This document shows, one piece after another, positions 19,174 through 38,567 of a stretch of DNA of 64,000 bases; positions within the stretch are counted from its first letter, which is position 1, and the number at the start of each line of letters is the position of its first letter. The DNA is from Gemmatimonadota bacterium. Lineage in GTDB: Bacteria > Gemmatimonadota > Gemmatimonadetes > Gemmatimonadales > GWC2-71-9. The translations under genes and the position numbers were made by a program. The notes below the pieces were generated by a model. The model was not told the DNA's origin. It was given only the letters and a program-made list of their open reading frames with translations, and made no database searches. The stretch covers positions 59,751 to 123,750 of the forward strand of contig JAZDCZ010000347.1 of the NCBI GenBank assembly GCA_036679605.1, in the 5' to 3' direction.

Positions 19174-19182
19174 TGGCCGATC

Positions 19183-19213
19183 TAACGCCCGTTTGACGCC
19201 CTGGCCTGAGATT
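19183..19213 (+). promoter_or_regulatory. Heptamer direct repeat promoter (SARP-box-like) of the regulator gene
   Basis: TAACGCC-cgtt-TGACGCC, 7 nt, GAGATT (-10-like), then ATG 5 nt later with no SD. Confidence 0.55.
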
Positions 19214-19218
19214 AGACC

Positions 19219-22200
19219 ATGATGACCGATCCGCCTGCTGTGAGCAAAGCTTTATATAGACTCATCACGCTGGGTCCACCAATGCTGCTGAAGACGGACG
19301 CTGAGGGCGAGCGTGTCATCTACACCATGGGGAAGCCGCTGGCGCTGGTAATCTACCTGTCGATGCTGCCTGGCAGAAGTGCCAGACGCGAGCACCTCTC
19401 CGCGGTTCTCTGGGGGAACTCTACCACAGCGAAAGGCCTGGCCGCATTGCGCCAGGTTTTGTGGCAACTCCGGGATCGATTGGGTGACGCCGCCGTAGTC
19501 AGCTCGGATCGCAACGTCTCCCTCAACATCGATTTGACTGTAGATGAGCAAGAGTGCTTGGCAGCCTTCAACGAGGGCGATTTTGCTCGCGTCGTGGAGC
19601 TATACACCAACGAATTCCTGCCGGATTTTGCGATCCCCGGAGCGGCAGAGTTGGAGATCTGGGCCGACGGAGAGCGGCAGCGGCTGAGATCGGCCTATCT
19701 CATGGCAGGAGAGTCGACGGTCCGTTGCATGCTGGACGAATCGCATTTCTCGGCGGCGTCTCACCTGGCCCATCGGCTCAGAGACTCCGATCCACTGTCC
19801 GAGAGGCTGTGGCGATTGCTGCTGGAGACCCTCGCCGCGGTCGGCGACACTGTCGAGATGAGATTGGAGATAGAGCGGCTGGAGTCGATGTTGGGCATGG
19901 AAGAGCGCGAGCCCGAGCCGGCAACGAGGGATCTCATACAACATCTCCGCGCACGACCTGACGCACGTCTCACTGAGGACGACACGTCTCATAGCCTCGT
20001 AGCCGAGCTGATCGGCCGAGAAAAGGAGTTCTCTGCTGTGATAGAAGGATGGCGCAAGGCAAAGGCGGGACAGCCTACACATTTTCACATAACGGGCCGT
20101 CCCGGCGTCGGAAAGACACGACTGCTCGACGACGTTCATGCCCGGTTGGACGCAGAGGGCGCGCGCACTGTCTATGTTCGGGCCCACCATGGCGAGCGTG
20201 CCATGACATTTGCTCTGGCGGGGGACCTTGCGGACGCACTGGCTCAGCTCCCCGGGGCAGCGGGCATATCTTCCGGATCCGTATCTCAGTTGCTCCATCT
20301 GGCACCTACCCTCTCGAACATCTACTCAGCGCGCCAGCCGGCGACAAACCCAACGGAGCAGGGCGCAATGAAGGCGTTGAGTGAGCTGTTGCTGGCCGTA
20401 GCCGACGAAGGCCCGTTCGCGATTCTAGTAGATGACCTGCACTGGGCAGATCGCTCTTCAATCGTCATCGTGCAAAGCTTGATTGCCCGGCTCGAGGGTG
20501 TGGGCACGCTCATCGTGACAACACAACGACCTCCCACCGAACCGCTCCCAGCTCCCTTCTCGGTGGCGCTCGAGCTAAACCCCTTGAGTTCTAAACAACT
20601 GCAACAGATGCTCGAGAGCCTGGGGTTGAGACGCAACTCGTGGTCGCGCGCGATGACGGACATCCTACACTCGGTCACTGAAGGCATACCGTTTCTCGTG
20701 TTGGAAATACTCAGACTGGCCCTCGACCGTGGTCTATTGCTGCTCGACAGATCGACGGACGCTTGGATTTGTCCGGACGAAGATGCGCTACGGCGAGAGC
20801 TACTCGGTGGGACGGCGGAAGAGCAGCGCATTGCCCGCCTTACGGAGCGTGAGCAAGGTGTCCTCTTGAGCCTCACCGTCGCCGGTATCCCACTGCACTG
20901 CCGGCTTATTGAGTCAATGCTGCAGATCGAATCTGCCGAATGCCTTGCACAACTCAGGAAGCTGGAGCGTGACGGATTCGTTGTTCAGAGCAACTCGCGG
21001 TGGGCGATCGCCCACGACAAACTTGCCGAGTCTATTCTCACTGGGACAGACTCTGCACGAGTTGCGGAAATCCGGGGCGCGTTAGCGAATGCTGCGGTAG
21101 CTATCATCCCGGACCCAGAAACGTTACGGCTCGCAACCCTACAGCTCGAGGCGTCCGGCGACAACGCATTGTTGCAGGTTGCATTCGGACACTGGTTGTC
21201 GTATTGGCGTGGCAGAGGAGATCGCCGCAGCGTACGGCAACTGGCGGCCGCATTGATTGGGGTCGACGTGCGCAGTTCCAGGGTGAGAGCACTTGTCAGT
21301 TCGTTGCCGTTGCGCAGGAGATTCCGCTATTGGTCCGTCACGACAGTGGGAACCGTGGCGGTGGTCGCGCTGGTAGTGGTCACGGGTGTAGCGGTCACTC
21401 TGGGATTGCGATCGAATCCTCCGTACCGCTTGATGGTCACGTCGACGCCCAGCGGACTTGCGTCGGATGTACTAACGATGATGCCGGCTCCAGCGATCGA
21501 GATCCGACACAGGGACGGAACGCTGGCGTCCGAGCTGGAAGATACTATCAGAGTGTCCCGAGTCCTGGGACCAAATCAGCTGACTGGTACTCTGGCGGTA
21601 GTAGCCGTTGGAGGTCGGGCCGTCTTCGATAGAATTCGGCCTGCTTACCCCGGTTCATCACAAGGAATCTGGGTGCTTCGCTTCGAGTCGTCTTGGGGCA
21701 CGGTGCAAACCGATTCATTCGAAGTCAACTATCCACCATCCCTGCATTTTGCAAGTGGCAGCATAAACGGTTACGTGGTGGATCGACGCGCGCTTACAAT
21801 TAGTGTGGGTCCTGGAGATTCACTTGTGGGAACCGTCGATCTCAGATACTCGACAAACTGGGGAGCGGCATCGATAGTTCTGGGCATGAGCAGCACATGG
21901 GAATCCCGGGAGGAAGTTGCACCCGGCAGGGCCCTAGCTACTCCGGTGCGCAACGGGTTGACGCGTGACATGCCTATCAACCTCAGGGCGCCGTCCGAGC
22001 CTGGCACCTACCATGTCATCTTCGCCTTTGCCGCCGAGGAGAACACGAAGCATGTTTTTTCGGGCACCAACTGGACGTATGGTGAGCCCGTGTGGCACGA
22101 CGGCAACGACATTGTTGACTGGCCCGACAGCATTTTGGGTATTGCGCGTACGACGGGTACGGGGACCAATCTGGTGCTCTGGCCCGACTATCCGCGTCAT

Positions 22201-22248
22201 CGCAATACCCAGGTCGCGGCGGCGGTGCTGGATGTGATAGTGCGGTAG
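19219..22248 (+). CDS. Membrane-anchored SARP/BTAD + AAA-ATPase transcriptional regulator with extracytoplasmic C-terminal domain
   Basis: N-terminal wHTH (KPLALVIYL..RREHLSAVLWG..LRQVLWQLR), BTAD (DPLSERLWRLLL), Walker A GRPGVGKT, Walker B ILVDDLHWAD, one TM helix (VGTVAVVALVVVTGVAVTLGL), beta-rich tail. Confidence 0.85.
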   Translation: MMTDPPAVSKALYRLITLGPPMLLKTDAEGERVIYTMGKPLALVIYLSMLPGRSARREHLSAVLWGNSTTAKGLAALRQVLWQLRDRLGDAAVVSSDRNVSLNIDLTVDEQECLAAFNEGDFARVVELYTNEFLPDFAIPGAAELEIWADGERQRLRSAYLMAGESTVRCMLDESHFSAASHLAHRLRDSDPLSERLWRLLLETLAAVGDTVEMRLEIERLESMLGMEEREPEPATRDLIQHLRARPDARLTEDDTSHSLVAELIGREKEFSAVIEGWRKAKAGQPTHFHITGRPGVGKTRLLDDVHARLDAEGARTVYVRAHHGERAMTFALAGDLADALAQLPGAAGISSGSVSQLLHLAPTLSNIYSARQPATNPTEQGAMKALSELLLAVADEGPFAILVDDLHWADRSSIVIVQSLIARLEGVGTLIVTTQRPPTEPLPAPFSVALELNPLSSKQLQQMLESLGLRRNSWSRAMTDILHSVTEGIPFLVLEILRLALDRGLLLLDRSTDAWICPDEDALRRELLGGTAEEQRIARLTEREQGVLLSLTVAGIPLHCRLIESMLQIESAECLAQLRKLERDGFVVQSNSRWAIAHDKLAESILTGTDSARVAEIRGALANAAVAIIPDPETLRLATLQLEASGDNALLQVAFGHWLSYWRGRGDRRSVRQLAAALIGVDVRSSRVRALVSSLPLRRRFRYWSVTTVGTVAVVALVVVTGVAVTLGLRSNPPYRLMVTSTPSGLASDVLTMMPAPAIEIRHRDGTLASELEDTIRVSRVLGPNQLTGTLAVVAVGGRAVFDRIRPAYPGSSQGIWVLRFESSWGTVQTDSFEVNYPPSLHFASGSINGYVVDRRALTISVGPGDSLVGTVDLRYSTNWGAASIVLGMSSTWESREEVAPGRALATPVRNGLTRDMPINLRAPSEPGTYHVIFAFAAEENTKHVFSGTNWTYGEPVWHDGNDIVDWPDSILGIARTTGTGTNLVLWPDYPRHRNTQVAAAVLDVIVR

Positions 22249-22301
22249 AAGGCTTCTGCAGCTGCAAAAGATCCGACCAACCCGTGCATACTCAGCTCAT
22301 A

Positions 22302-22332
22302 TAACGCCTATCTAACGTCCTCGTTGTATGCT
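22302..22332 (+). promoter_or_regulatory. Heptamer direct repeat promoter (SARP-box-like)
   Basis: TAACGCC-tatc-TAACGTC, 7 nt, TATGCT (-10). Confidence 0.6.
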
Positions 22333-22389
22333 CCGAAGCAGCATTAATAGGGGCGCTTGTCCCCTCGTTCCCGGAGAGCAAACATCAAT

Positions 22390-23745
22390 ATGCGGTGCGT
22401 TTGTCGTGTACTACTCGCTACGTCAGCCACCATGGTCTTCGGCTGCGGCGAGGCTCCCTTTGCGCCGTCGACAGCAGGTGGTCCCGCACTTGCAATCTCG
22501 GATGGAGCGCACAATGGTAACGCGCACTTCTTCTTCCTGCCGCCGTTGGTGCGTCAAGCCGAGTTCAGCGGCACCTTCGACGGTTCATTGTCTCCCGTGG
22601 TACGGATCACAGAGAACGGGGCACCGCTGGTCGACCTAACTCCTACAGTCCATCTGTTGGACGAATTGTATCAAGTGAATTGGCACACGGACGATTTCGC
22701 ACTCGATTCATCCAAGAGTTATCGCATCGTCGTACTGCTCGATGGAACCGAGTTGGGCTTCGCTGACGTAGTTGTTGGCGCGACTGGAAAGGAGTTGCGG
22801 CCCGTCAACACCGATGAGTTCATCGCCTTGAAGGACGGCCGAACACTGCCGATCAAATTCCGGATTGAAGACGGTGCGCTACGAGGACCTCTTACTTGGA
22901 CACTCGAAACTATCGACGGAACGTCGAACGTGTTGAGTGTGTGGGCATCGTCTCCTTCTGATGTGTGGGTCGCCGGCGGGTTTACGACCCTCTTTCACTT
23001 TGACGGTTCGACCTGGACTCAGCCGGGCCTTCCCTCAGGAACTCTGAACACGAATTCCCTGTTCGGCTTTAGCCCCACGTCGGTATTTGCCGCAAGTCAG
23101 GCGGGAGTGATGCACTACGACGGCACTATGTGGACCTTTGTGTTGGGAGGCGTTGGTGAACTTTTTGGAATCTGGGGAACATCTGCGACAGATCTGTTTG
23201 TCTCTGGCGATGGCCGGTTCCTGCATTTCGACGGCAGCAACTGGACGGACATACCGACAGGTCTATCTACGGCTTTCAATACAGATCGTCTCCTTGCCAT
23301 GTGGGGTACGTCATCGACCGACGTCTTCATAGCTGGCGCGTCAGTAGGACCTAAAGGGCGGATTCTGCGCTATGACGGAAACACCGTGACTGAAATCATG
23401 ACGGTTCAGGGCGCTGCAGTTCATGCCATCCATGGTACTGGGCCGAATGACGTGTTTGCCGTCGGCTCTGGTGGGCACATATGGCATTACGACGGCGCCG
23501 CATGGACAGGAATGACCAGCGGTACTTCCCTACCGCTCGGTGGAGTATTCGCGGTCTCTCCGGTAGACGTCTATGCTGCAGGCAGCAGCGGCAGCTTACT
23601 ACACTATGACGGTGTCACTTGGGCTCCTGTTACAAGCGGAACATCTCTGTTCCTCGGCGGCATCGGGTATGGAGTATTCGCGCTATCAGCAGATTTGGTG
23701 TACGTGACTGCCTCGCCAGGAACCCTGTTGGTAGGAAGACGCTAG
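22390..23745 (+). CDS. Lipoprotein with uncharacterised N-terminal domain and W-G-x-S-x-x-D-V beta-propeller-like repeats
   Basis: MVFGC lipobox; repeated WASSPSDVW/WGTSATDLF/HFDGSxW units. Confidence 0.8.
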   Translation: MRCVCRVLLATSATMVFGCGEAPFAPSTAGGPALAISDGAHNGNAHFFFLPPLVRQAEFSGTFDGSLSPVVRITENGAPLVDLTPTVHLLDELYQVNWHTDDFALDSSKSYRIVVLLDGTELGFADVVVGATGKELRPVNTDEFIALKDGRTLPIKFRIEDGALRGPLTWTLETIDGTSNVLSVWASSPSDVWVAGGFTTLFHFDGSTWTQPGLPSGTLNTNSLFGFSPTSVFAASQAGVMHYDGTMWTFVLGGVGELFGIWGTSATDLFVSGDGRFLHFDGSNWTDIPTGLSTAFNTDRLLAMWGTSSTDVFIAGASVGPKGRILRYDGNTVTEIMTVQGAAVHAIHGTGPNDVFAVGSGGHIWHYDGAAWTGMTSGTSLPLGGVFAVSPVDVYAAGSSGSLLHYDGVTWAPVTSGTSLFLGGIGYGVFALSADLVYVTASPGTLLVGRR

Positions 23746-24149
23746 ACGTATGGTTGGGGCAGCCTCAGAGGGAACCGACCGAATCCAGGAGGCCGACTCT
23801 ACATGACGACTCATAGTCAGACCCACAAGGCTTGGCTCGTACACTGACAGCAATCCTCCAGTGTGCGCGCGAGGCGGCGGTAAGTGCCTGTCGCTCCTGG
23901 GTGAGGGCCGGAAGCATCATGGGAGACGCGTTTCTGATATCTGTTACCCGAAACACCGCTGGGCAGTGGGGATTGTTCAGAACGACTGGCAAACACAACG
24001 GGCTGGCCCGTGGTGCGACGCGTCGAGGGCCCGAAACAAGTGACTCTTCTGGATTCACACACCTCCGACAGGGTGGCGAGGCCTGGCGCAATAATATCTG
24101 CCGTAGATAGGTTTATAGTCTACATCACAGCGAAAAGTGGAAGGAGCAA

Positions 24150-24614
24150 GTGCAGCGGGAGAAATCTATCTTCGACAAGATTGGCTCATTGATACCTGGA
24201 TATCGCGGGTATGCAGAACGGGAGGGACGGCGCCAATCAGACAAACTCCTGCGGCTTCGGATTGCCGACGCCCTGGACCGGTGTGCCTCAAACGTGCAAG
24301 ACCGGATCGACGATGCGCTCAGAGCCGGCGTTCCAGATCAGCTTGGGACGCACGAACGCTGCCACAAGAAACTGGATACGCTCGCGGCGAAAATTCGGTA
24401 CGCCCCTCACGGCGTTTCGTCGTTCTTCAGCGACGTACAGGTCAAGGAGGAGGAGCTGCTGCACCTGTATGAGCTTGACTGCGCCCTCGCGCAGTCGACC
24501 GACACGCTGACCCAGGAGATCGGGCAACTCGATCCCAATACCGCCCTGACCCACGTCGACGAAATAGCGAATGCCATGGATCGCAGAAACTCCTGGCTCC
24601 AGGAACGTAAGTAA
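24150..24614 (+). CDS. Hypothetical helical protein (IPGYRGY..RR..DKLLR family, SPFH-associated)
   Basis: GTG start with AAGGAG SD; stop overlaps next ATG (taatg). Confidence 0.75.
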   Translation: MQREKSIFDKIGSLIPGYRGYAEREGRRQSDKLLRLRIADALDRCASNVQDRIDDALRAGVPDQLGTHERCHKKLDTLAAKIRYAPHGVSSFFSDVQVKEEELLHLYELDCALAQSTDTLTQEIGQLDPNTALTHVDEIANAMDRRNSWLQERK

Positions 24615-25603
24615 TGCCGGCACTCATGGAAGTTTTGGAGTTCCTGGACGACTCGGGAAACGTAATGGTACAGCGGGTACCGTCCGTCGGCCAATGTTCT
24701 ATTCGGTGGGGAGCACAACTCACTGTTCGTGAGAGTCAGGCAGCAGTCTTTGTCCGCGACGGTAAGGCCCTCGATGTATTCCCAACCGGTCGGTATGTGC
24801 TTGAAACGCAGAATGTGCCTGTCGTCGGGAAGTGGATCACAGGATTTGGCTATGGACCACAATCTCCTTTCCGAGCCGAGGTGTACTTTCTCAACTTGAA
24901 GCTGTTTCCTAATCTCCGTTGGGGTACGCGCGAACCAGTTGTCTTCCGCGACGCAGAACTCCAGATGATCCGGCTTCGCTCAAATGGCATCTTCTCACTA
25001 CAGATCGCGGACCCGACTGTTTTTCTCAACAAGGTTGTTGGTACACAAGGTCTATACCTGGATAACCACATTCACGACTATCTACGCAACACGATAGTGA
25101 CACGCCTGACAACTGTCTTGGGAAAACATTTCAAGACGATATTCGATGTTCCCACGGAACTGGACAACCTCTCCCTCATGGTACGAAGCAGCTTGCGGGA
25201 TGATTTCGGCGGACTAGGGCTGTCGCTCCATGATTTCCTCATCAATTCCGTTTCGGTGCCTCCGAATGTACAACAGTTGATCGACGCTCGCGCGGGCATG
25301 GCTGCTGTCGGAAACATGGATCAGTTCATGCGGTTCAAGGCTGCCATGGCTCTCGAGACAGCCGCCGACAACCCGGGTGGTGGGGCCGCTGCGGGCGTAG
25401 GGGTAGGCGCCGGTGTCGGTCTCGGCTTCATGTTACCGCAGATGATGCGAGACGCATTCACAGCTCCACACCCCACGCCAGAGACACCGGCCACCGACAC
25501 GGCTCTCGACACCATCAGACACCTCAAGGAGCTGGTCGATCTAGGCGCTATTACCCAGGACGAGTTCGAGCACAAGAAGCAGGAACTCTTGAAGGAGATT
25601 TAG
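24614..25603 (+). CDS. SPFH/band-7-like (YdjI-type) protein with C-terminal SHOCT
   Basis: GAQLTVRESQAAVFVRDG, SPFRAEVYF, WGTREP; LKELVDLGAITQDEFEHKKQELL SHOCT motif. Confidence 0.85.
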   Translation: MPALMEVLEFLDDSGNVMVQRVPSVGQCSIRWGAQLTVRESQAAVFVRDGKALDVFPTGRYVLETQNVPVVGKWITGFGYGPQSPFRAEVYFLNLKLFPNLRWGTREPVVFRDAELQMIRLRSNGIFSLQIADPTVFLNKVVGTQGLYLDNHIHDYLRNTIVTRLTTVLGKHFKTIFDVPTELDNLSLMVRSSLRDDFGGLGLSLHDFLINSVSVPPNVQQLIDARAGMAAVGNMDQFMRFKAAMALETAADNPGGGAAAGVGVGAGVGLGFMLPQMMRDAFTAPHPTPETPATDTALDTIRHLKELVDLGAITQDEFEHKKQELLKEI

Positions 25604-25604
25604 G

Positions 25605-25961
25605 GTGAGATTCGTCCTCGGCGTAGGCCTCGCGATCATTACGGTGGCAACCGTGGTCTACGTGTTGGAAACAGATCGCTCATTGGTGCAAGTCACGGTC
25701 GGGTTCATCTTGTTTTTCCTCCCGGCCGTCTTCATCTCATCTTTCAGGTCCACAGCGTCAATCTTCCTGCTCGTCGCCTGTACAGGGGCAACGGGATACT
25801 TGGTCGTCAAGGGCTCGTACTACGACACCGCGCTCGGAATTGGACTGGCCCTGTTGTTGGGTGGATCTATCGCCTACTGGAGAATCCGTCATTACCAACC
25901 CTTTTCCCGCGCAAGTTTTGAGCAACAAGCAACCGGCAACAAGGATTTTAGGGATGGCTGA
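25605..25961 (+). CDS. Small integral membrane protein
   Basis: About four hydrophobic helices; operonic spacing. Confidence 0.7.
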   Translation: MRFVLGVGLAIITVATVVYVLETDRSLVQVTVGFILFFLPAVFISSFRSTASIFLLVACTGATGYLVVKGSYYDTALGIGLALLLGGSIAYWRIRHYQPFSRASFEQQATGNKDFRDG

Positions 25962-26415
25962 GGACCCACTGCAGTACTTTGGCGAGGCGATCTCGCTCGT
26001 TCACGATGGGTTCTATATGGATGCCATCGAGAGGTTGCAGACGCTGGTTAACCGCTTCCCGGAGTCGGATCTCGCCGACGACGCACTATACAACGTCGCG
26101 TTGTGCTATTACGAACTGAACCAGTTTACAGAGGCCGAGTCACACCTCGTTTACCTTCGCGACGCCTATCCCGACGCCCAAATCGACTCCCAGAGCGCAC
26201 TTGACGAACACGGCCGTACTGCGGCGCGAGCCCACTATCTCAGCGCCAACTGCAGCCTTGCGCAGGGACACATCGGGCAAGCCGAGGCATCAGTAACTGC
26301 TCTGCAGGACTACTCCGATTCCTATGTGATCAAGGACGGGAAAAGAATAGCCTACGGAGACCTCGCACAGAACGCCATCGATCTCTATAAGAGTCTTACC
26401 CACCCTGGGTCCTGA
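25954..26415 (+). CDS. Tetratricopeptide repeat protein
   Basis: FPESDLADDALYNVALCYYEL TPR motif; ATG at 25954 overlaps upstream stop. Confidence 0.75.
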   Translation: MAEDPLQYFGEAISLVHDGFYMDAIERLQTLVNRFPESDLADDALYNVALCYYELNQFTEAESHLVYLRDAYPDAQIDSQSALDEHGRTAARAHYLSANCSLAQGHIGQAEASVTALQDYSDSYVIKDGKRIAYGDLAQNAIDLYKSLTHPGS

Positions 26416-26429
26416 GAAGGATAAACAGC

Positions 26430-27281
26430 ATGGCCACCTTCAAGACAACACAATGTCCCAACTGTGGAGCCGGCCTGCAGGTTCCACACGACAAAGACGA
26501 CATTATCTGCATGTATTGCGGTGGCCAAGTAGTGGTCAAGCAGACAGTCCCGAAAATCGCCGGTAGCAATGTTGACAATTTGCTGAAACTCGCTGAGGTC
26601 GACCGCGAGGCAGGACAACTTGGGGATGCCATCCATTATTACAACAAGGTGCTCGAGGTGGAAGTCGAGAACGCCACCGCTTGGTTCGGTAAAGGGAAGT
26701 GCCTCGTGCTGAGGTCCATAGGGAAGTCCGAATGGCAGAATCCGCTTGATCAGGCCGTCACGTTCTTCAAGAAGGCGGTGGAATACGCTGAGGATCAAGC
26801 AAAGATGAAAAAGCGCATCGCTTTTGAACTCTGGGACATCGTCACCGTTCTAAGACGTGGCATCATGATTCGATACAGACGAGATCGAAGCAACAGCCTA
26901 ACGACCCTTATGACGAAAGTTCAAATGTATGAACTCGATAAACACATGGCAATGGCCTTCGAGTACCACCCCGACGAGAGGATTATCAAAGAAGCGTTGA
27001 ACATTTGCCAGGAGTATGTGAAGGAGCTAACGGGCTCGCTGAGTACAAAGCACCTCACACCGGAGGACAAACACATGAAGGCGCAGCTGCAGAAGTACAC
27101 CGCAGACCTGGCAGCGGCTCCGGCTGCCGCGCAACCTGAATCGACAGCGACTGCTGCAGCTTTCCCGTCTACCACTGAGCAACAACAGCCGGCAATCGGA
27201 ATGGGTCAACGCATTTTTAGTGTCGGGTTCCTCGGAGCGTTAATTGCGGCGGTTATTTGGACGGTATTGGTTTGGAAGTAA
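26430..27281 (+). CDS. Zinc-ribbon + TPR protein with C-terminal TM helix
   Basis: CPNCG..CMYCG; AIHYYNKVLE..AWFGKG; hydrophobic C-terminus. Confidence 0.78.
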   Translation: MATFKTTQCPNCGAGLQVPHDKDDIICMYCGGQVVVKQTVPKIAGSNVDNLLKLAEVDREAGQLGDAIHYYNKVLEVEVENATAWFGKGKCLVLRSIGKSEWQNPLDQAVTFFKKAVEYAEDQAKMKKRIAFELWDIVTVLRRGIMIRYRRDRSNSLTTLMTKVQMYELDKHMAMAFEYHPDERIIKEALNICQEYVKELTGSLSTKHLTPEDKHMKAQLQKYTADLAAAPAAAQPESTATAAAFPSTTEQQQPAIGMGQRIFSVGFLGALIAAVIWTVLVWK

Positions 27282-27928
27282 CCGCAGTTAGTGGACGGGC
27301 CGTCTTCAATGATGTTGGTTCGGGAGACCCTGATTCCTCGGCGGGCTTTTGGGTGCTCCGCCTTGAGTCGTCCTGGGGAACCGTGGTAACCGATTCGTTC
27401 GAAATCAACTATCCGCCCTCCCTACATTTCGAAAGTGGCAACATTAATGGGCAGGGCCTGGGTCCGCAGGCACCTACTATGACCATGGGTGTAGGAGATT
27501 CAATCGTAGGAGCGATCAATCTCACGTATTCGACAAATTGGGGAGCGGCATCGATAGTTCTGGGCATGAGCAGCACCTGGGACCGCCGCGAGGACGTCGC
27601 CCCCTGCAGGGGCCTACCTACTCCCGTGCGCAATGGCGTGACACGTGACCTACCTATCAATCTCCGGGCGCCGTCAGAACCTGGTACCTACCATATTATC
27701 TTCGCCTTTGCCGCCGAAGAAGATACCAAACAGGTGTTCTGAGGCACCAACTGGACTCTTGGCCAGCCGGTGTGGTACGACGGCAACGACATCGTTGACT
27801 GGCCCGACAGTCTCCTGGCAATTGCTCGTACAACAGGCACCGTAGCCGATCAACTGGTACTCAAACCCAACGATCTGACTGCCATTACGTTGGTCGCGGC
27901 GACTGTGCTGGATGTGACAGTGCGGTAG
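27278..27928 (+). pseudogene. Orphan, diverged copy of the 3' ~215 codons of the 19219-22248 regulator (extracytoplasmic domain)
   Basis: GRAVF..WVLRLESSWGTV..YSTNWGAASIVLGMSSTW..APSEPGTYH..VLDVTVR*; premature TGA at 27740 where the intact gene has TCG; no 5' part. Confidence 0.9.
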
Positions 27929-27978
27929 GGAGCTGGAATGGGGTGATCGGCAGTCGCCCTGCCTCTTGTGGTCTCATA

Positions 27979-28009
27979 TGACGCCCATCTAACGCCACCG
28001 CTGTATTGA
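27979..28009 (+). promoter_or_regulatory. Heptamer direct repeat promoter (SARP-box-like)
   Basis: TGACGCC-catc-TAACGCC, 7 nt, TATTGA. Confidence 0.55.
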
Positions 28010-28100
28010 TAAGCGCTGAGTGAGCTGCGCCGGATTGTCACACCCTCAACCCAGCTTCCAAAGACCGGCACCGTCCGCGGCTACCCAGGAGAACCAGAAA

Positions 28101-28286
28101 ATGGCAGATCGGAAGTCCAAGTTTCTTGAGAGTACTCTCTGCACGCCGCTGACAGTGCCGGATGCACCGTGTAGCGCGACAGACTCGGCGACGGCATCCG
28201 AGGCCGCCAAAGAGCAGAAGTCAGCAAATCTCGGTCCGAGTCAGCCCGACACCAAGACGCCGCGGAGTGGTGGCGAACGGGAGTAG
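28101..28286 (+). CDS. Conserved small protein, copy 1 (61 aa, internally shortened)
   Basis: AGGAGA SD, MADRKSKFLESTLCTPLTVPDA; synonymous divergence from copies 2 and 3. Confidence 0.65.
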   Translation: MADRKSKFLESTLCTPLTVPDAPCSATDSATASEAAKEQKSANLGPSQPDTKTPRSGGERE

Positions 28287-28294
28287 ACTTTTCC

Positions 28295-30814: not shown

Positions 30815-30881
30815 GAAGGGCGGCGCATCCTTTGGTGTAGCATATACGGCACTCCTGGCTATTGAAGGCAAATATTTTTAC

Positions 30882-31007
30882 GAGCTGGCCGGAGAAGGTG
30901 CTCGTCGGATGTTGGTAGAGGCATTGGAGCCAGAGGTCGCCGAGTACATCGGGCGGCACACTGACGAGCGTGATGCGGCTGGCCGGGCCCATGTGGTTCA
31001 CGACGGA
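30882..31007 (+). mobile_element. IS256-family transposase N-terminal remnant
   Basis: ELAGEGARRMLVEALEPEVAEYIGRHTDERDAAGRAHVVHDG resembles the IS256 'GARRML..ALEAEV..Y......RD..G...VVRNG' motif. Confidence 0.65.
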
Positions 31008-31173
31008 GTGGAACAGAAATAGCTGTTGGCGAGACACGATGAGTCTCATACGGAAGTCATTCAGGTGAGTTCCGAAAAGGTATCAATAGACTGTCGGCTG
31101 GTGGGCCCAAGGAACGCTGACTGCCTGCAGCTGATCTGCGAAGTCGGTCTATAACTCGAGGAGAATAGTAACC

Positions 31174-31683
31174 ATGGCAGAATTCACTGTTGCAGGTCCC
31201 TTCCGCATGCCATCTGACCAGCGTGCCGGTGGGAAGAAACTCCATTACGCTAAATTCTGGAAACAGTCGGATGAAATAGGTGGGTTACGAAAGGAATGTG
31301 GTGTATATGTGTTTGCGGTGAAAGCGGGGAAAGGATACACACCTTGGTACGTGGGGAAGGCAACGAAGTCCTTTGGTCAGGAATGTTTTAGTCCCACGAA
31401 GCGTGTCAAGTTTTATAACGCATTAGCTGAATACAAGCAAGCTACGCCCGTACTATTTTTTGTGCGCCATCCCAAGAAGCCAGGCAAGACTAATGAGAAG
31501 GAAATAGAGCAGATCGAATCTTTCCTAATTCAGCTAGCCGCCGAGAAGAACGAGAACCTCCAAAATGTTCAGAAAAAGAAAGGGCCAGATTGGTCTATTG
31601 CGGGTGTAATACGAGGGAAGAAAGGAAAGCCAACCAAGAGTGCAAGAGAGTTTAGGAAAGCAATTGGTCAAATCAAGAAATGA
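31174..31683 (+). CDS. GIY-YIG nuclease-like protein
   Basis: GVYVF...WYVGKA motif, later E (IEQIESFLI) and N; Lys-rich; AT-richer than flanks; GAGGAG SD. Confidence 0.7.
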   Translation: MAEFTVAGPFRMPSDQRAGGKKLHYAKFWKQSDEIGGLRKECGVYVFAVKAGKGYTPWYVGKATKSFGQECFSPTKRVKFYNALAEYKQATPVLFFVRHPKKPGKTNEKEIEQIESFLIQLAAEKNENLQNVQKKKGPDWSIAGVIRGKKGKPTKSAREFRKAIGQIKK

Positions 31684-31760
31684 AAGCGTCAAATAACTAC
31701 AGGTTGATCTGAAGCCATGGCCGCCACATGGTCGACGTCCGACAGTAATCAGCCTCACAA

Positions 31761-31832
31761 CAAGACGCCGCGGAGTGGTGGCGAAGGTGACTGCCGTACC
31801 GGCGATGCGAGCTACTCAGATGGTACCGTCGC
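31761..31832 (+). repeat. Fragment of the conserved small ORF (internal part missing from copy 1)
   Basis: First 25 nt identical to 28253-28277; continues ggtgactgccgtaccggcgatgcg...ggtaccgtcgc as in copies 2 and 3. Confidence 0.8.
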
Positions 31833-31854
31833 TCTTCGTGACGTCCCAAGCAAC

Positions 31855-32040
31855 CTAGACGGGGTCAATCGATAAGATGGCGACTGGTTTATGGCACTTG
31901 GTGCACTCAATCTCCATTTTGCCGAAGTGGTCCTTCGTCTTGGCCTCTTTGGTTCTCACCTCAATCTTGTCGCTCCAGACATTGCGTTCGACCGTGATAA
32001 CAGCATCGCACTTCTTGCATCCGAACTGCACAAATTTCAT
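31855..32040 (-). CDS. Small zinc-ribbon protein (61 aa)
   Basis: MKFVQFGCKKC...CTKCH; AAGGAA SD. Confidence 0.6.
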   Translation of the reverse strand: MKFVQFGCKKCDAVITVERNVWSDKIEVRTKEAKTKDHFGKMEIECTKCHKPVAILSIDPV

Positions 32041-32407
32041 GGCGTTCCTTTCACTATAGAGTAGATCGAGTGTAGGTTTGCGACCTAACGACAAAGGATT
32101 GTATACGGAGTGCTTACGGCCCGCGACTGTCGTCGCTGGATTGGTCGTCGGGCCCGACGGAAGCATGATATTCCCGGTGGTTTGAGCATTCCTGATACAA
32201 TCAGTTGAACTAATCCACTGCTGTCAATGGGTGTTGCTATCTGCTTTGCGACCTTCGACAAGGTCTCAGATGATCCGCAGTGCGGTTATGCAGCCGAGCT
32301 GCTGAGCAGGGAGAGCCGGAATTGGTGAATTGGGAATCTCGAATACGTTGTTCCCAGTAGCAGCAGTTGGGCCTAAGTGACTTGAGAGCAGATTGCCGCA
32401 GCGACTC

Positions 32408-32470
32408 CCCGATCTGCATCACGTCGACACCCCAGTTGCAGCGGCCGTGCTGGATGTGATAGTGCGGTAG
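32408..32470 (+). pseudogene. Second orphan 3' tip of the SARP-AAA regulator
   Basis: Encodes PDLHHVDTPVAAAVLDVIVR* vs PDYPRHRNTQVAAAVLDVIVR* in the intact gene. Confidence 0.8.
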
Positions 32471-32521
32471 TATGCTGGAATGGGGTGTTGCGCAGTCGCT
32501 CCTGCCTCTTGTGGTCTCATA

Positions 32522-32552
32522 TGACGCCCATCTAACGCCACCGCTGTATTGA
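32522..32552 (+). promoter_or_regulatory. Heptamer direct repeat promoter (SARP-box-like)
   Basis: TGACGCC-catc-TAACGCC, 7 nt, TATTGA; identical to 27979-28009. Confidence 0.55.
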
Positions 32553-32642
32553 TAAGGGATACGCGAGCTGCGCCGGATTGTCACACCCTCAACCCAGCTT
32601 CCAAGACCGGCACCGTTCGCCGCTACCACAGGAGAACCACAG

Positions 32643-32918
32643 ATGGTCAATCGGAAGTCCAAGTTTCTTGAGAGCACACTCTGCACGCCACTGACCGTGC
32701 CCGATGCACTCTCTGACGCAACAGACTCGGCGACGGCATCCGAGCCGGCCAAGGATCAGGCATCAGCGAAGTCGGGGGCCGACCAAGCTGACACCGGGGC
32801 GCGAGGCACGGCTGGCGAAGGTGAGTGCCCTACCGGCGATGCGATCAACTCAGAAGGTACCGTCGCCACCAATAAGAGAGCAGTCCTCCTGAATGTAGCG
32901 GATGCGATACAGGAGTAG
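32643..32918 (+). CDS. Conserved small protein, copy 2 (91 aa, apparently intact)
   Basis: AGGAGA SD; MVNRKSKFLESTLCTPLTVPDA...VADAIQE*. Confidence 0.7.
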   Translation: MVNRKSKFLESTLCTPLTVPDALSDATDSATASEPAKDQASAKSGADQADTGARGTAGEGECPTGDAINSEGTVATNKRAVLLNVADAIQE

Positions 32919-32926
32919 ATCTTTCC

Positions 32927-34726
32927 ATGACGAAACAGCTATTGCATGAACATCCGAATATGAGGACCATACCTGCGCTCCGTTATGCCGCCGTCCTCAT
33001 AACGGCTATTGTTTCGGCCTGTGGTGGTGGCCAGCCCAGCGCACCTGGGGAGCAGGACGCGTCTGCACCGACGATCCATGTAGCCCCGAGTACCGCCACA
33101 CTCGTGTCGCTAGGCGCGACTGTTCAATTCGCCGCTACGGCACGAGATGCCGCTGGCCGTATCATACCGGGCAAGGCATTTACGTGGACGTCAAACGACG
33201 GGAATGTGGCGACCGTCAGCGACTCCGGTCTGGTTATGGCGATCGCGAACGGACAAACATTTATCACAGCGAGTGCCGATGGCATCCAGGACTCGGCATC
33301 ACTTACGGTCTCGCAAATAGCCGTTCGACTAAACGTCAAACCAGACAGCTTGGTTCTGACTGCGATTGGAGATACTGCACGGCTCACTGGGCAGGTGTTC
33401 GATGCGAATGACAGCATCGTTGTGGACGCCCCACTGGCCTGGTCGAGCGGGAATCCGACAGCGGTGACCGTGGACACGACGGGACTAGTGACAGCTCTGA
33501 GACGCGGCACTGTAGCAATTGCCGCACAGAGTGGCGCTGTGCGTGATTCTGCGGTTATCGCTGCGAGATTACCGATTGTTGTCGTGACGCCGAGGGGTAG
33601 CGGCTTGAGCGGTGTTGGAAGCACGCTGATCGCAATGGCCGAGTTCCGCGATTCCGCTGATAACGCGATTGGTGGTAAGACATTCTCCTGGACCAGTCTG
33701 AATCCGACGGTGGCGACCATAGAGCCTGGAACCGGATTAGTCACCGCAGTTACGAGCGGGCAGGCCATCATTCAGGCTACAGCGGATGGGCTTGGCGGCT
33801 ACGGACTTATTACCGTCAACGTGGCAGAAGCATCGCCGGCCATGACATGGGACTCTGTTGCCAGCCCCACGGACACTAGCATGTATTCGGTTTGGGGTTA
33901 TAGCGCTGACGACGTGTGGGCAGGAGCCATTGGCTCGATCCTGCATTTTGACGGAACGGCATGGACCGTGGCGCTCGACACGGGTCTTCCGACATCGGCT
34001 TTCATTACTGGGATCTGGGGCAGCCAAGCAGATGACGTGTGGGCCATCGCCGCCCCCCAAACATTTCTCCACTTCGATGGAGCATCTTGGTCCAAAGTAC
34101 CCAGTCAGGAAGATTTTGGACCCACAGGTATCTGGGGAAGTGCACCCAACGACATCTGGGTGTCTGGATCCTTTGGCATTGGGCATTACGACGGTGATGC
34201 CTGGCGTCGGGTAAAGGTCCCTCTGATCTCCGCTGACGTAGAATTCGTCGGCATCTGGGGCACGGCAGCAGACGACATCTGGGTCGTCGCGAATTCAGCT
34301 ACCAGACCTGACGTAGCCCTCCACTACGACGGTAAGGATTGGCAAATTGTTACCATTTCATTTGGCATAAATAACGCAAGTGTCTGGGCGGCAAGCAGTA
34401 GTGACGTCTGGATCGTCGGAGCTACTCGCAAACACTTCGACGGCAGCAGTTGGAGTGTATCTACCACGGACGCAAATGGTACAAGGATTGAGAGCGGTAT
34501 GCGTTCGGTTTATGGCACTGCACCGGCAGACGTGTATAGCGCCGGCGTCCCTCAAATTGCCGACGGTGTTGTAAGCGAATCTGGCCTTTTGCACTTCGAC
34601 GGAGCAGCATGGCAGTATCTTTCAAATCCTGTGTCTACCCAGCTCAACGCTATATGGGGTCGCGCACCGGGCGTTGTGTGGATGGTGGGTGAGTACGGTG
34701 CAATCATTCGAGGTCGCCGGCAGTGA
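32927..34726 (+). CDS. Lipoprotein with Big_2 Ig domains and W-G-S-x-x-D-V-W beta-propeller-like repeats
   Basis: IVSAC lipobox; WTSNDGNVATVS etc.; WGYSADDVW/WGSQADDVW/HFDGxxW repeats. Confidence 0.88.
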   Translation: MTKQLLHEHPNMRTIPALRYAAVLITAIVSACGGGQPSAPGEQDASAPTIHVAPSTATLVSLGATVQFAATARDAAGRIIPGKAFTWTSNDGNVATVSDSGLVMAIANGQTFITASADGIQDSASLTVSQIAVRLNVKPDSLVLTAIGDTARLTGQVFDANDSIVVDAPLAWSSGNPTAVTVDTTGLVTALRRGTVAIAAQSGAVRDSAVIAARLPIVVVTPRGSGLSGVGSTLIAMAEFRDSADNAIGGKTFSWTSLNPTVATIEPGTGLVTAVTSGQAIIQATADGLGGYGLITVNVAEASPAMTWDSVASPTDTSMYSVWGYSADDVWAGAIGSILHFDGTAWTVALDTGLPTSAFITGIWGSQADDVWAIAAPQTFLHFDGASWSKVPSQEDFGPTGIWGSAPNDIWVSGSFGIGHYDGDAWRRVKVPLISADVEFVGIWGTAADDIWVVANSATRPDVALHYDGKDWQIVTISFGINNASVWAASSSDVWIVGATRKHFDGSSWSVSTTDANGTRIESGMRSVYGTAPADVYSAGVPQIADGVVSESGLLHFDGAAWQYLSNPVSTQLNAIWGRAPGVVWMVGEYGAIIRGRRQ

Positions 34727-34731
34727 TCTCG

Positions 34732-35004
34732 GGCCGATCGGAAATCCAAGTTTCTTGAAAGTACCCTCTGCACGCCACTTACCGTACCCGATGCATCCTG
34801 TGATGCAACAGACTCGACGACGGCATTCGAGCTGGCCAAGGATCAGGCATCAGCGAAATCTGGGGCCGTGCAAGCCGGCACCAAAACACCCAGGAGTGGC
34901 GGCGAAGGTGACTGCCCTACCGACGATGCGAGTGACTCAGATGGTACCGTCGCCACAAACAGAAGATCAGTCATCCCGAATGTAGCGGATGCAATACAGG
35001 AGGA
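34732..35004 (+). pseudogene. Conserved small ORF, copy 3 (start codon and promoter lost, stop TAG replaced by GAG)
   Basis: ADRKSKFLESTLCTPLTVPDASCDATDS...VADAIQEE directly after the upstream stop. Confidence 0.7.
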
Positions 35005-35012
35005 GTTTTTCC

Positions 35013-37061
35013 ATGAAGAAACATCTGCTGCATCAACATCCGAATATCAGCCCCATGACTGTGCTCCGCCATGCCGCCGCCCTGATAACAGCCATTGTGT
35101 CAGGCTCTTGCGGTTCGGGTTCTAGGACAGAAACATCAACAGGCCCAACCGATACTCCGCGCACCCCCCCTGCGCCACCCTCGGTAGCCACGGTGAACGT
35201 GCTTCCAGCCAGCGTGACTCTGCTGGCTTTGGGCGCGAGTCAGCAGTTCACAGCGATGGCTCTGGCAGCTTCCGGTGACACCATAACGGGCAAGACATTT
35301 GCCTGGTCTTCGTCCGATTCAAGTGTGGCGTCAGTCGAAGCGTCTGGTCTTGCCACTGCCGTCAGTAATGGCACCGCCACTATTCGAGCGACGGTCGAAG
35401 GCGTTGGCGGTGCAGGCAGGCTTGAGGTCGCGGTCGCTGAGGTCCTGACATCCATTACTGTCACTCCCGACTCAGCTCTCCTGACGGCGCTAGGAGACAC
35501 GCTACAGTTTGCGGCTGAGGCCCTCGATCTGAATGGAAACACCTTAGCGGCGCAGCCCTCGTTTACGTGGCGAAGTTCCGACACTGCTGTAGCGACTGTG
35601 GACGGGACCGGGCTCGTTGTAGCGGTCGCTAACGGCACCGTGACGATCTCAGCAGATGTGGGCAACGTCATCGGAACCGCTACCCTCAACATCGACCAAG
35701 TGGTGTCGAGCGTGACCGTCACCCCCGATTCGGCCTTACTGACTGCGCTGGGCGATACTGTAAGGTTTGCGGCTGAGGCGCATGATGCCAACGGGATCTT
35801 GCTGGCGACTCAGCCTTCGGTGGTTTGGGGCAGTACTGACTCAGCGGTAGCGAGCATCGACAACACAGGACTCGCGACGGCCGTCGCCAATGGACCATCC
35901 AGCATCATCGCAATCGCAGATGCAGTTGAAGGAAACGGGACCGTCGAGGTCAGCCCGGTAATCCAGGTCGTTAATGGCCGTAACCACACCTGTGTACTCC
36001 TGGCCAATGGAACAGCGTTCTGTTGGGGAAACAATCGCTTCGGTCAGCTCGGTGATGGTTCCACGGATGAAAGAGCCGAACCGGTGCGTGTACTAGGAAC
36101 AGTTCGGTTCGTGTTCCTGGCAACTGGAGGCGAAGCCACGACGTGCGGATTCGACTCATCAGGGTCGCTATATTGCTGGGGCGACAACCAATGGGGACAG
36201 TTCGGCAACGGGACAACCACAAACAGTCTCCAGCCGGTGGTCGCCGGTGGAGGGCTGTCCTACACGTTTGTAGGATTGGGAGCTGGGCACGCATGTGGTT
36301 TCGCGACGAGCGGGAAATTGTATTGTTGGGGATGGAACCACGTTGGACAGGTGGGCGACTCAACGGCGAACTTCTGTCTCGGCGGGTGTAATCCGGACTT
36401 ACAGCACGTGGTTCTAGGGCCGACTCTCGTCGTCGGAGGGATCACGTTCAGCGGTGTTGCGGTTGGCTGGGGTCACAATTGTGGGTGGGATGCTGCGGGG
36501 ACCGCCTACTGTTGGGGCATCAATCAAGACGGGCAACGCGGCGACAGCTCGACGGTCCTAGCACGCTCAGTTCCCGAAAAGGTGAGCGGTTCCCATAGTT
36601 ACGAACGGCTGACGACCTTGAATTTCACCACGTGTGGTACTACAACCCAGGGATCAACTTACTGTTGGGGATTCAACGTGTGGGGTCAGCTGGGGGCCGG
36701 AATGGACACGTCTTCTGTCAATTCGCCGGTGCTTGTAGCGGGACCTGCTTTCTCTCACCTCTCATCAGGAAATGGTTACCATGTTTGCGCCGTCGAGGCT
36801 GGTACAAGCGCAACATTTTGCTGGGGCCTAAACCAATCAGGTGAGCTAGGGGATGGGACGCAAGTGAACCGGAATCAACCGACTCAAGTGAACAGCACCG
36901 TATCGTTCGTCAGCATCGCGACCAGTTGGAGCCACTCATGCGGGCTCGATGCTGACGGCAAGACCTTCTGTTGGGGATCGAGAAAATTGGGAGTACTTGG
37001 ACTCGGAAGTCCAATCACGGGGCTTGAAGTCACTCCGCGCCGAGTGCGCATCATTCCGTAG
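35013..37061 (+). CDS. Lipoprotein with Big_2 Ig domains and RCC1-like repeats
   Basis: VSGSC lipobox; HTC..AFCWGNNRFGQLGDG RCC1 repeats; GGAG SD 7 nt before ATG 35013. Confidence 0.9.
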   Translation: MKKHLLHQHPNISPMTVLRHAAALITAIVSGSCGSGSRTETSTGPTDTPRTPPAPPSVATVNVLPASVTLLALGASQQFTAMALAASGDTITGKTFAWSSSDSSVASVEASGLATAVSNGTATIRATVEGVGGAGRLEVAVAEVLTSITVTPDSALLTALGDTLQFAAEALDLNGNTLAAQPSFTWRSSDTAVATVDGTGLVVAVANGTVTISADVGNVIGTATLNIDQVVSSVTVTPDSALLTALGDTVRFAAEAHDANGILLATQPSVVWGSTDSAVASIDNTGLATAVANGPSSIIAIADAVEGNGTVEVSPVIQVVNGRNHTCVLLANGTAFCWGNNRFGQLGDGSTDERAEPVRVLGTVRFVFLATGGEATTCGFDSSGSLYCWGDNQWGQFGNGTTTNSLQPVVAGGGLSYTFVGLGAGHACGFATSGKLYCWGWNHVGQVGDSTANFCLGGCNPDLQHVVLGPTLVVGGITFSGVAVGWGHNCGWDAAGTAYCWGINQDGQRGDSSTVLARSVPEKVSGSHSYERLTTLNFTTCGTTTQGSTYCWGFNVWGQLGAGMDTSSVNSPVLVAGPAFSHLSSGNGYHVCAVEAGTSATFCWGLNQSGELGDGTQVNRNQPTQVNSTVSFVSIATSWSHSCGLDADGKTFCWGSRKLGVLGLGSPITGLEVTPRRVRIIP

Positions 37062-37491
37062 GATCCCAGGCTGTGCAGGCGGATAGGTCCTACAGGATCG
37101 TACCATGTGTAGATCCAACCCACATGCCGAATAGGACGGAGGTCGCCACCCTCTCATCGAGTTGAGGCGGGCATGCACCGGTTTCATAAATCAATTTTGG
37201 GGAAGAGGTCCACATGACGGTGCTTCAGGCGATCGCTCCGACTACATCAGCGCGGACTTCATCGCTATTCCGATCCCCCAGGAACCCCGCGACTCTCATC
37301 GTTCCAACGCTGTCGAGCCTGCCTAAGTCCGCTTCAAGAATCCGGATCGCTTCCACTCCATTTGAGCCGTTGCACTCTCAACTCGGAGACAGCTTCTTGG
37401 GCGCGCTCAGGATGAGCCGCGAGATCCAAATAGACATGAAGGGTGTCCCACAGTCCGGACCCTCCAAGCATTCCGCGCTAGCGGCAAGCGC

Positions 37492-37537
37492 TTGTTCGGA
37501 AGTGAACGGCATATTATGCTTCATGTAAAGCGTGAAG
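37492..37537 (+). promoter_or_regulatory. higBA promoter and candidate antitoxin operator
   Basis: TTGTTC-17-TATGCT; imperfect palindrome CTTCATG-taaag-CGTGAAG (37519-37537). Confidence 0.55.
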
Positions 37538-37567
37538 ATCGGACTACTGGCAGAGGGGACGGCGCGT

Positions 37568-37858: not shown

Positions 37859-37893
37859 GGCCCCGAGCCCAGCTAAAGCCATAGGAACGAGCC

Positions 37894-38202: not shown

Positions 38203-38567
38203 GCCGCCCCGAAGGTTGGGCCTCGCTTCCTGACAGGCATTAGGTAATGAAGTGCTCGGCGGGTAACCGCTCTGGTTTACTTCATACTCTGCATCCCTTG
38301 TTCAATATTCGATTCGCTCAAAGCATATCTGGATGTGGGGTTTGAGCCACCCGTGTTCCGCCCAGCGCTCAAGGCTCACTACCGACCACCCGGATCGCTT
38401 TCACTCCATTTGAGCAGTTGGACTCTCAGCTCGGAGGTAGCTTCTTGGACATAAGAGAGCCGGCAGACTAAACGCCTGCCGGCTACTCAACGCAGCGAAA
38501 GAGCTACGCAATGTGGCACTCCGTTAAACGAAACCTACGGCACGATAAGCATCTTGTCGAGGTTCTC

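Follow-up and report, generated by a model that had tools for sequence, protein, structure and literature searches.

AfsR joins a wHTH, a BTAD domain and a NOD/STAND module in that order (PDB 8K60, 8HVR; available parts of PMC10936776 and PMC10832544) and is the best PDB match to the regulator described here. According to the part of PMC10936776 available to us, SARP proteins use a pair of direct repeats with an 11-bp period, of which the 3' one lies 8 bp before the -10 element, and the afs box has this form. In Streptomyces the first target of that box is afsS, which encodes a small protein needing two to five internal amino-acid repeats (PMC10832544). AfsR is soluble and carries a TPR sensor at its end; our regulator instead has a predicted transmembrane helix and an Ig-like ectodomain. 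The afs box is also unlike the box found here, YTRACG repeated at 11 bp, and the targets here are surface lipoproteins.

ToxR has surface proteins among its targets and, to our knowledge, ToxR, TcpP and CadC all lack BTAD and a STAND ATPase. Like our regulator as predicted, these are one-component proteins with a cytoplasmic OmpR-type wHTH, a single transmembrane segment and an extracytoplasmic domain (survey PMC10269533, in part); the available main text of that survey mentions neither SARP, Gemmatimonad nor TPR. A conserved ToxS- or TcpH-like neighbour was not seen among 40 regulator loci, where the neighbours vary. The orphan modules of CDI and Rhs loci are start-less 3' copies of a large gene lying downstream of it, each then followed by other genes. 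Our locus resembles them in having start-less 3' copies downstream of an intact gene, each followed by other genes, but differs in lacking toxin and immunity genes.

The window is a 64,000-nucleotide stretch from a Gemmatimonadales bacterium with a 6.7 Mb genome. We consider it probable that its intact SARP-STAND regulator senses an outside signal, binds the box and activates its own gene and four lipoprotein genes, and that the array downstream (Table 1) grew by promoter duplication and regulator decay. Every feature listed in an earlier, sequence-only reading was found in its place, including regulator 3' ends at 22248, 27928 and 32470, and no toxin domain was found in the modules, as had been claimed. 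The description of a unit repeated wholly or partly four times needs qualification: unit 1 lacks a small ORF, Big_2 is absent from lipoprotein 1, and the third of the conserved small ORFs described is without a box and retains neither its ATG nor its stop codon. Similarly, the lipoproteins do carry different heads, but of three types among the four, lipoproteins 1 and 3 sharing one (30% identity over 305 columns). The internal DNA repeats of lipoprotein 2 are 90-92% identical. Unrelated cargo interrupts the units twice, and the final codons of the five-gene block overlap the start of the orphan regulator copy. The debris comprises a transposase-like N-terminal remnant at ~30870-31020, which has no Pfam hit and which we take to resemble IS256, and a low-GC ORF (31174-31683). 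A fourth small-ORF fragment, beyond those of the earlier list, lies at 31749-31832.

Table 1. Features of the regulator and lipoprotein array (positions in the window).
Feature	Position	Strand	Description
Box A, CTAACGC-N4-TTGACGC, with weak -10-like GAGATT 8 bp on	19182..19213	+	Predicted autoregulatory promoter of regulator
Intact regulator, 1009 aa	19219..22248	+	OmpR-type wHTH, BTAD, STAND/AAA_16, predicted TM, two Ig-like domains
Box B; -10 TATGCT 8 bp past second heptamer	22301..22332	+	
Lipoprotein 1, 451 aa	22390..23745	+	Lipobox Cys19, N-domain without assignment, propeller-like repeat head, no Big_2
Cargo block, five genes	24150..27281	+	Unknown; SPFH/Band-7 + SHOCT; membrane protein; TPR; zinc-ribbon/TPR/TM
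Orphan copy of regulator residues 792-1009	27272..27928	+	70% aa identity, in-frame TGA 27740-27742
Box C; imperfect -10 TATTGA	27978..28010	+	
Small ORF 1, 61 aa	28101..28286	+	20-residue N-terminus conserved
Lipoprotein 2, 839 aa	28295..30814	+	Big_2 + Big_1 repeats; C-terminal region without assignment
Debris	30815..32420	.	Transposase-like remnant, low-GC ORF, small-ORF fragment
Second regulator stub, last 16 codons only	32423..32470	+	
Box D; imperfect -10	32521..32553	+	
Small ORF 2, 91 aa, candidate AfsS-like partner	32643..32918	+	
Lipoprotein 3, 599 aa	32927..34726	+	Big_2 x3 + propeller-like head
Small ORF 3, start and stop lost, no box	34733..35005	+	
Lipoprotein 4, 682 aa	35013..37061	+	Big_2 x3 + RCC1 repeats

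Pfam places BTAD (PF03704; 24.9 bits, cut-off 22.1) at residues 146-244 of the regulator, after the wHTH, and AAA_16 at 263-428 (E 3e-18), with Walker A (GRPGVGKT) at 293-300 and Walker B at 401-406. Across 37 aligned rows G296, G298, K299 and D411 of the ATPase are invariant, and D405 and D406 are kept in at least 90%. A hydrophobic segment at ~707-730 (hydropathy peak 2.5) follows RRRFRY on its inner side, and the predicted topology is a cytoplasmic DNA-binding domain, one transmembrane helix and an extracytoplasmic domain. These assignments agree with the wHTH-BTAD-AAA-TM-extracytoplasmic order proposed from the letters. A single-sequence search of the PDB missed AfsR, whereas a profile of the 37 cytoplasmic regions placed it first (E 8e-15, spanning 21-350), followed by EmbR (5e-8, 15-86). 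Among the residues with which AfsR contacts DNA, W74 and R87 align with W65 and R78, which never vary, and R94 with R85, which 32 of 37 regulators have. Judged by domains and profile match, the regulator is an AfsR-type SARP-STAND protein.

The repeats of the box, at 11 bp with the 3' repeat 8 bp before the -10, reproduce the SARP geometry as far as the published rule was available. The longer heptamer pattern TRACGYC-N4-TRACGYC occurs four times in the genome, always in the array locus; the bare hexamer pair occurs 16 times, which is estimated to be near chance. Beyond the heptamer-repeat promoters that had been noticed at 22302, 27979 and 32522, the fourth site precedes the regulator itself. 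A strict -10 is found only at box B, which has a mismatch in its first repeat. The surroundings of boxes C and D are 95% identical over 104 nt, and the whole unit 83%. Reading TTGACG as a plain sigma-70 -35 element was rejected, the spacers to the -10 being 20 and 9 nt against ~17. The boxes face lipoprotein genes in the array locus and in relatives. The box is likely bound by the regulator, the two forming a predicted activator-operator pair.

Small ORFs 1 and 2 occupy the position of afsS as the first gene behind the box, starting 123 and 122 nt after the starts of boxes C and D; their 61 and 91 codons answer to the small gene expected behind the box of an AfsR-type regulator. The small ORF is coding, since 19 of 21 pairwise differences in codons 3-22 are synonymous (dN/dS 0-0.05, p at most 0.003). 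An antisense frame was rejected as the source of this bias, the minus frame that shares wobble positions having stops. Internal repeats of the kind AfsS needs were not seen on reading the alignment, which sets the small ORF apart from AfsS. A search of 5.8 billion proteins returned only the window's own copies, and one of 1.84 billion representatives a single 1972-aa protein aligned at positions 27-78 only; 300 other genomes of the order gave a single match, marginal (E 9e-4) and interrupted by a stop, and JGI metagenomes and the Atlas no homologue. To judge by these searches, the small ORF is found only in the source genome.

The orphan regulator copy comprises 219 codons that begin inside the Ig domain and is 75% identical to the intact gene in nucleotides. 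It was long part of a working gene, because it is sister to the intact copy in the tree (support 100/99) and bears the mark of purifying selection (dN/dS 0.25, dS 0.82). The second stub is 81% identical in amino acids, and the last eight codons are nearly unchanged among the three regulator ends. Related duplications occur elsewhere. At a paralogous locus with a divergent promoter (contig C113), a 273-nt, ~95% identical copy of the box and regulator 5' end is placed before a second lipoprotein gene, and in genome G052 a 147-nt box segment is duplicated without the regulator. Thirty-nine other loci, 33 of them with at least 8 kb downstream, yielded the stub-box-lipoprotein layout once (G120) and stubs alone in two more. 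Two loci, L063 and L084, gave marginal stub hits (E 0.005-0.01) that we discounted as chance. In G001, a congener, the genes on either side of the insertion site lie on different contigs, and the regulator is behind neither in the DNA examined.

It had been proposed that the locus carries interchangeable cassettes and varies by recombination at the regulator 3' end, which would exchange the sensor tip together with the adjoining lipoprotein and leave the orphans as a reservoir of displaced ends. Single-crossover integration would indeed be expected to give an N-terminus with a new end, then cargo, then the old end; the G120 locus (C11) has the same layout, and in G376 a 77-aa stub directly follows the regulator. 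The near-constant last eight codons also suit such an exchange, as does a minor contig (depth 3.9) from run X1, which may be the source sample: within the sensor region, at 22077-22163, this contig differs by 10 substitutions. Against this, an intact orphan C-terminus able to replace the resident end was not found, one copy having a stop and the other being 16 codons long, and the 80 metagenome loci (28 with at least 3 kb downstream) showed no stub beside the regulator. A sensor swap cannot account for the 5' stub on C113, and no swap-type joint appears among the X1 contigs listed. Only 5 of the 10 substitutions in the X1 variant agree with the orphan (one run only), and gene conversion from the orphan was not supported as their source. 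We regard an active cassette system as rather unlikely. Conserved unit order, expected if the idea held, mostly fails: by comparison of loci the array is not a conserved system, because the stub-box-lipoprotein layout recurs in only one of 39 and the small ORF in none. Rarity among relatives, broken or very short orphans and a 5' stub at a divergent promoter likewise distinguish the locus from CDI and Rhs orphans.

The stubs are best explained as DNA that was carried along in promoter duplication and has since decayed, rather than as a toxin-style swap reservoir, because the array is not conserved, the orphan is old and has a stop, and a paralogue copied the regulator 5' end. Regulator-box-(small ORF)-lipoprotein units would have been duplicated long ago (dS 0.4-1.1), either in place or with import from a close relative. 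Spare regulators would then have been cut short by cargo insertion or by deletion, with control of the retained boxes and lipoproteins falling to the one remaining regulator or to its paralogues. On this reading a single genome records two occasions on which the regulon grew by promoter duplication, marked by stubs from opposite ends of the regulator. A more ambitious synthesis would have a membrane SARP-STAND family with varied ectodomains read one promoter code and drive a surface regulon grown by promoter copying, with AfsS-like feedback and with the stubs as crossover points exchanging sensor tip and cassette between strains; taken as a whole, this is a long shot.

The sequence pattern behind the proposed one-component transmembrane SARP-AAA receptor, with a direct-repeat box before lipoproteins, holds across the order. 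Of 40 orthologous regulators, 15 are flanked by a perfect box (16 hits against 0.2 expected, enriched at period 11 only), a count that is not fully independent because the hexamer consensus was set after the flanks had been viewed. Upstream of the regulator is the commonest position (16/33 sites); 18 of the 40 have no box within one mismatch. Among metagenome regulators with the upstream flank covered, 11 of 18 have one at that tolerance. When a strict box was required with TANNNT at exactly 8 bp, 144 matches were obtained in 42 of 151 Gemmatimonadales genomes, up to 19 per genome, against 6 for a reversed-pattern control; elsewhere in the phylum 3 of 46 genomes matched, with 1 control hit. 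With spacings of 4-14 allowed, 65 of 69 matches fell at exactly the SARP spacing, as given in the available account. By a crude heuristic, a lipobox is present in 6 of 14 box-led genes and 34 of 422 others (p 7e-4); for signal peptides the figures, 9/14 and 163/422, do not differ significantly (p 0.09). Of the genes behind 30 strict boxes chosen regardless of regulators, about half were read as not secreted. On these sequence patterns, regulator, box and surface lipoprotein form a predicted order-wide circuit, of which our literature searches, judged from their results, returned no published account.

PhoB/PhoP-type proteins also use 11-bp direct repeats, and the box might be read by another order-wide activator such as an OmpR/PhoB-type response regulator, the SARP genes being members of its regulon. 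Indeed, of those 30 strict boxes only three lay within 1.5 kb of a SARP gene, and in genus g26 boxes are scattered singly. Conversely, the flanks of SARP genes are enriched ~80-fold in boxes, whichever the orientation, the 8-bp spacing is the SARP rule as published in the part available, and the recognition helix is conserved across the family, with Q79 in 36 of 37 regulators, which fits a common box. SARP matches are also more numerous in five box-rich than in five box-free genomes (4-13 against 0-3, confounded by genus and assembly quality). A different activator is, on this balance, quite improbable.

That the unit order is an assembly artefact or strain chimera is barely credible: the MAG has 6.3% contamination, no contig among those listed bridges the 56-nt exact repeat in which boxes C and D lie, and one piece has depth 8 against ~14, but the array copies, at 75-95% identity, are too divergent for collapse, X1 depth is nearly flat (~13-18x in all but one of 30 bins, the exception being the final bin, beyond the array, at 27x), long pieces have no other letters listed, and key junctions lie inside single contigs (22164-27568, 30013-32530 and 32575-38389).

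Under the proposed control by the membrane SARP-STAND regulator, a ligand would bind the distal ectodomain; our guess is a polymer outside the cell, for example a glycan or a peptide. The STAND module would then exchange nucleotide and free the SARP domain, by analogy with AfsR. Geometry and co-occurrence support a model in which a pair of SARP domains would occupy the repeats across the -35 region and bring RNA polymerase to the -10, 8 bp off. It is tempting to speculate that the small ORF acts as a feedback partner of the regulator, as AfsS does for AfsR. The AfsR design, known from antibiotic control, would be extended to a membrane receptor whose STAND switch is driven from outside. For an abundant order of which little has been cultured, this yields a predicted activator-operator pair with its predicted regulon, and a 32-bp promoter signature that finds candidate targets genome-wide.

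The ectodomain is mainly beta, with an Ig-like domain at 735-837 and a distal one at 837-1009 that holds a conserved insertion, S-x-T-N-W..P-x-W-x-D-G-N-D, in which Trp116, Trp123 and Gly are invariant. A Pfam search with 34 members gave no family and two weak single hits only, and Atlas hits were all under 0.9. The best fold match of the distal domain, albeit weak, is the Fw domain of NBR1/ILRUN (PDB 6VHI, 4OLE; Foldseek E 8e-4, TM 0.37/0.53; VIA Z 6.7, rmsd 3.6 over 106 residues), from which it differs by ~65 further residues left unaligned; no match exceeded this Z, which unrelated rows equal and which is of the size expected for a common Ig arrangement. The distal domain also occurs in secreted proteins; this extracellular domain, which has no name, is common to these receptors, a Ser/Thr kinase and secreted peptidases.

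The repeats listed by a sequence-only reading of this locus are present when the window is compared with itself, although the units prove less regular than it described (see the table). Its heptamer-repeat promoter, here termed the box (a YTRACG direct repeat at 11 bp), was likewise recovered, the pair being found four times in the whole genome and each time at the present locus, and its conserved small ORF shows purifying selection over the first 22 codons. An N-terminal extension, M-K/T-K-x-L-L-H-x-H-P-N, precedes the signal peptide in lipoproteins 2-4, and the DNA at this extension is similar to that around the start of lipoprotein 1.

Features of the array, its surroundings and related loci (window coordinates unless a contig or locus is named)
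Feature	Coordinates	Remarks
Regulator	19219-22248	box A at 19182
Unit 1	box 22301; lipoprotein 22390	box, lipoprotein
Unit 2	orphan 27272-27928; box 27978; lipoprotein 28295	219-codon orphan with stop, box, small ORF, lipoprotein
Unit 3	stub 32423-32470; box 32521; lipoprotein 32927	16-codon stub, box, small ORF, lipoprotein
Unit 4	lipoprotein 35013	start-less small ORF, lipoprotein; no box
Repeat pair	21604-22248 and 27284-27928	75% identity
Repeat pair	27893-28284 and 32435-32826	83% identity
Repeat pair	32650-33028 and 34737-35114	82% identity
Five-gene SPFH/Band-7-SHOCT and TPR block	24150-27281	inserted where second regulator copy is cut
Minor contig, run X1	22077-22163	depth 3.9; 10 substitutions in sensor region, 8 third-position
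Lipoprotein 3 stop and start-less small ORF 3	34724-35005	stop in frame with the small ORF
HigBA-type toxin-antitoxin pair	37532-38202	intact; between 59-nt direct repeats (90%), span 37342-38448
NYN-domain gene	~38.57-39.2 kb, minus strand	frameshifted; beyond HigBA-type pair
Paralogous regulator, divergent lipoprotein genes, 273-nt duplicate	G000:C113:38875-45389 (L020)	another contig of the source genome
Ser/Thr kinase	L203:931-2559	regulator's distal extracellular domain at its end

The orphan, a 3' copy of the regulator, is the sister of the intact gene (100/99). Between the two, dN/dS is 0.25 at a dS of 0.82, indicating that the orphan spent most of its history as a working part of a complete gene and was truncated recently; the end of the cargo block coincides exactly with the orphan start. 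On contig C113 of the same genome, a SARP-AAA-TM paralogue of 1345 aa, whose ectodomain differs and is PD40-like by our reading, also has the box. There the promoter is divergent, and a 273-nt copy (~95% identity) comprising the box together with codons 1-39 of the regulator stands ahead of a second lipoprotein gene. The stub is whichever regulator end adjoins the promoter. Promoter duplication would be expected to give this pattern, which sensor swapping does not explain. Between units 2 and 3 the box regions share 95% identity, compared with 83% for the unit as a whole, which fits either retained promoter function or conversion. The minor variant tract in run X1 is a third allele, distinct from that of the orphan, and hints weakly at exchange between strains. 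Of 39 other loci, 33 of which include 8 kb or more of downstream sequence, one (G120:C11, whose boxes carry two mismatches) shows the complete order of regulator, box, lipoprotein, cargo, stub, box and lipoprotein; stubs alone occur in genomes G376 and G149, and a lone partial regulator copy in G202:C6. The array most likely records regulon growth specific to this lineage. In loci L089 (G076:C57) and L183, two complete regulators of the same subfamily lie within 6-7 kb of one another, possibly an earlier stage of a tandem array.

The box itself extends across the order. Flanks were taken from 40 regions around the best matches; three with only broken or partial genes were dropped, one region contained two regulators and two further loci were added, giving 40 regulators. 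Of these, 15 had a perfect YTRACG-N5-YTRACG in their flanks (16 matches against 0.2 expected) and 22 had one with at most one mismatch (33 against 1.7 expected), counts that are not fully independent since the hexamer consensus was fixed after viewing the same flanks; periods of 6-10 and 12-18 were near background. Further tests were independent of that choice. Combined with TANNNT, the strict pattern matched 144 times across 42 of the 151 order genomes searched, against six times for a reversed control. In one genus, five genomes together gave 69 matches when 4-14 bases were allowed between hexamer and -10, and in 65 of them the distance was exactly nine. Nine bases after the hexamer equal eight after the heptamer, the same eight-bp geometry stated for SARP promoters in PMC10936776; heptamers with 4-nt spacers are described in PMC3367932. 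Lipoboxes are enriched in box-led genes (6/14 versus 34/422), and the recognition helix (LRQ) is nearly invariant across the regulator family. A SARP gene lies within 1.5 kb of only 3 of 30 strict boxes, which speaks against a private circuit. The box is thus best read as a code shared by the regulator family. Genomes of genus g26 (G052, G032, G026, G034 and G089) carry 10-19 strict boxes each, scattered ahead of secreted-protein genes and often near mobile elements.

The regulator contains BTAD and AAA_16 domains (Pfam), and a basic patch followed by a hydrophobic helix; AfsR and EmbR were the first matches among solved structures to a profile of 37 cytoplasmic regions. Structure prediction of its ectodomain (pLDDT 92.6) gives a proximal Ig domain of intimin type (Z 10.0; rmsd 2.3 across 92 residues), a match equalled by velvet and GH2 Ig domains. 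The distal part (pLDDT 94.8) is predicted to be Ig-like as well, its best match reaching Z 6.7, and contains a long insertion that is conserved. Across 401 order genomes, 50 matches with E <1e-26, three being the query's own rows, extend into the distal domain, nearly all within ~1000-1100-codon frames. From metagenomes, 80 of 113 distal-domain loci were kept, and in 28 of the 80 the SARP portion shares the frame. A Pfam scan of 30 of those without it identified several as peptidases (S8, C11 or C14) or as Ig/PKD/NHL/FG-GAP proteins and one as a Ser/Thr kinase, while 10 gave no match. The distal domain is a mobile extracellular module, which supports a putative sensing role. Individual parts belong to known kinds. 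Their combination, the family of the ectodomain and the promoter shared across the order seem not to have been described in the literature searched, which yielded no account of transmembrane SARP-STAND regulators or of the present promoter in Gemmatimonadota. The main text of a transmembrane-regulator survey (PMC10269533), whose supplements could list such proteins, mentions neither SARP nor Gemmatimonad.

No homologue of the small ORF was detectable elsewhere in protein databases, order genomes or metagenomes. Like afsS, it is short, of low complexity and the first gene downstream of a SARP box. AfsS, according to PMC10832544, increases the affinity of AfsR for DNA by binding it through internal repeats; these are absent from the small-ORF protein, whose conserved 20-residue head and variable tail would suit a binding motif. 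It is tempting to speculate on an AfsS-like role, though this seems rather doubtful. In three loci of genus g17 (L057, L059 and L060), a different conserved protein of 124-145 aa is the first or second gene from the regulator-divergent box.

The window corresponds to positions 59751-123750 of contig C276 in the 6.7-Mb source MAG (G000). The locus is flanked by genes for an AMP-binding enzyme and an aminotransferase, both of which have orthologues of 86-87% identity in the congener G001, from which a close regulator copy is absent (best match E 9e-34). Contigs from sequencing run X1 cover the region at near-even depth and bridge the main junctions, a consistency check only, as X1 may be the source sample; none spans the exact repeat of 56 nt at boxes C and D. 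A relative in run X3 shows 90-93% identity over 19125-19238 and 22012-22162, and its regulator promoter has a different upstream neighbour.
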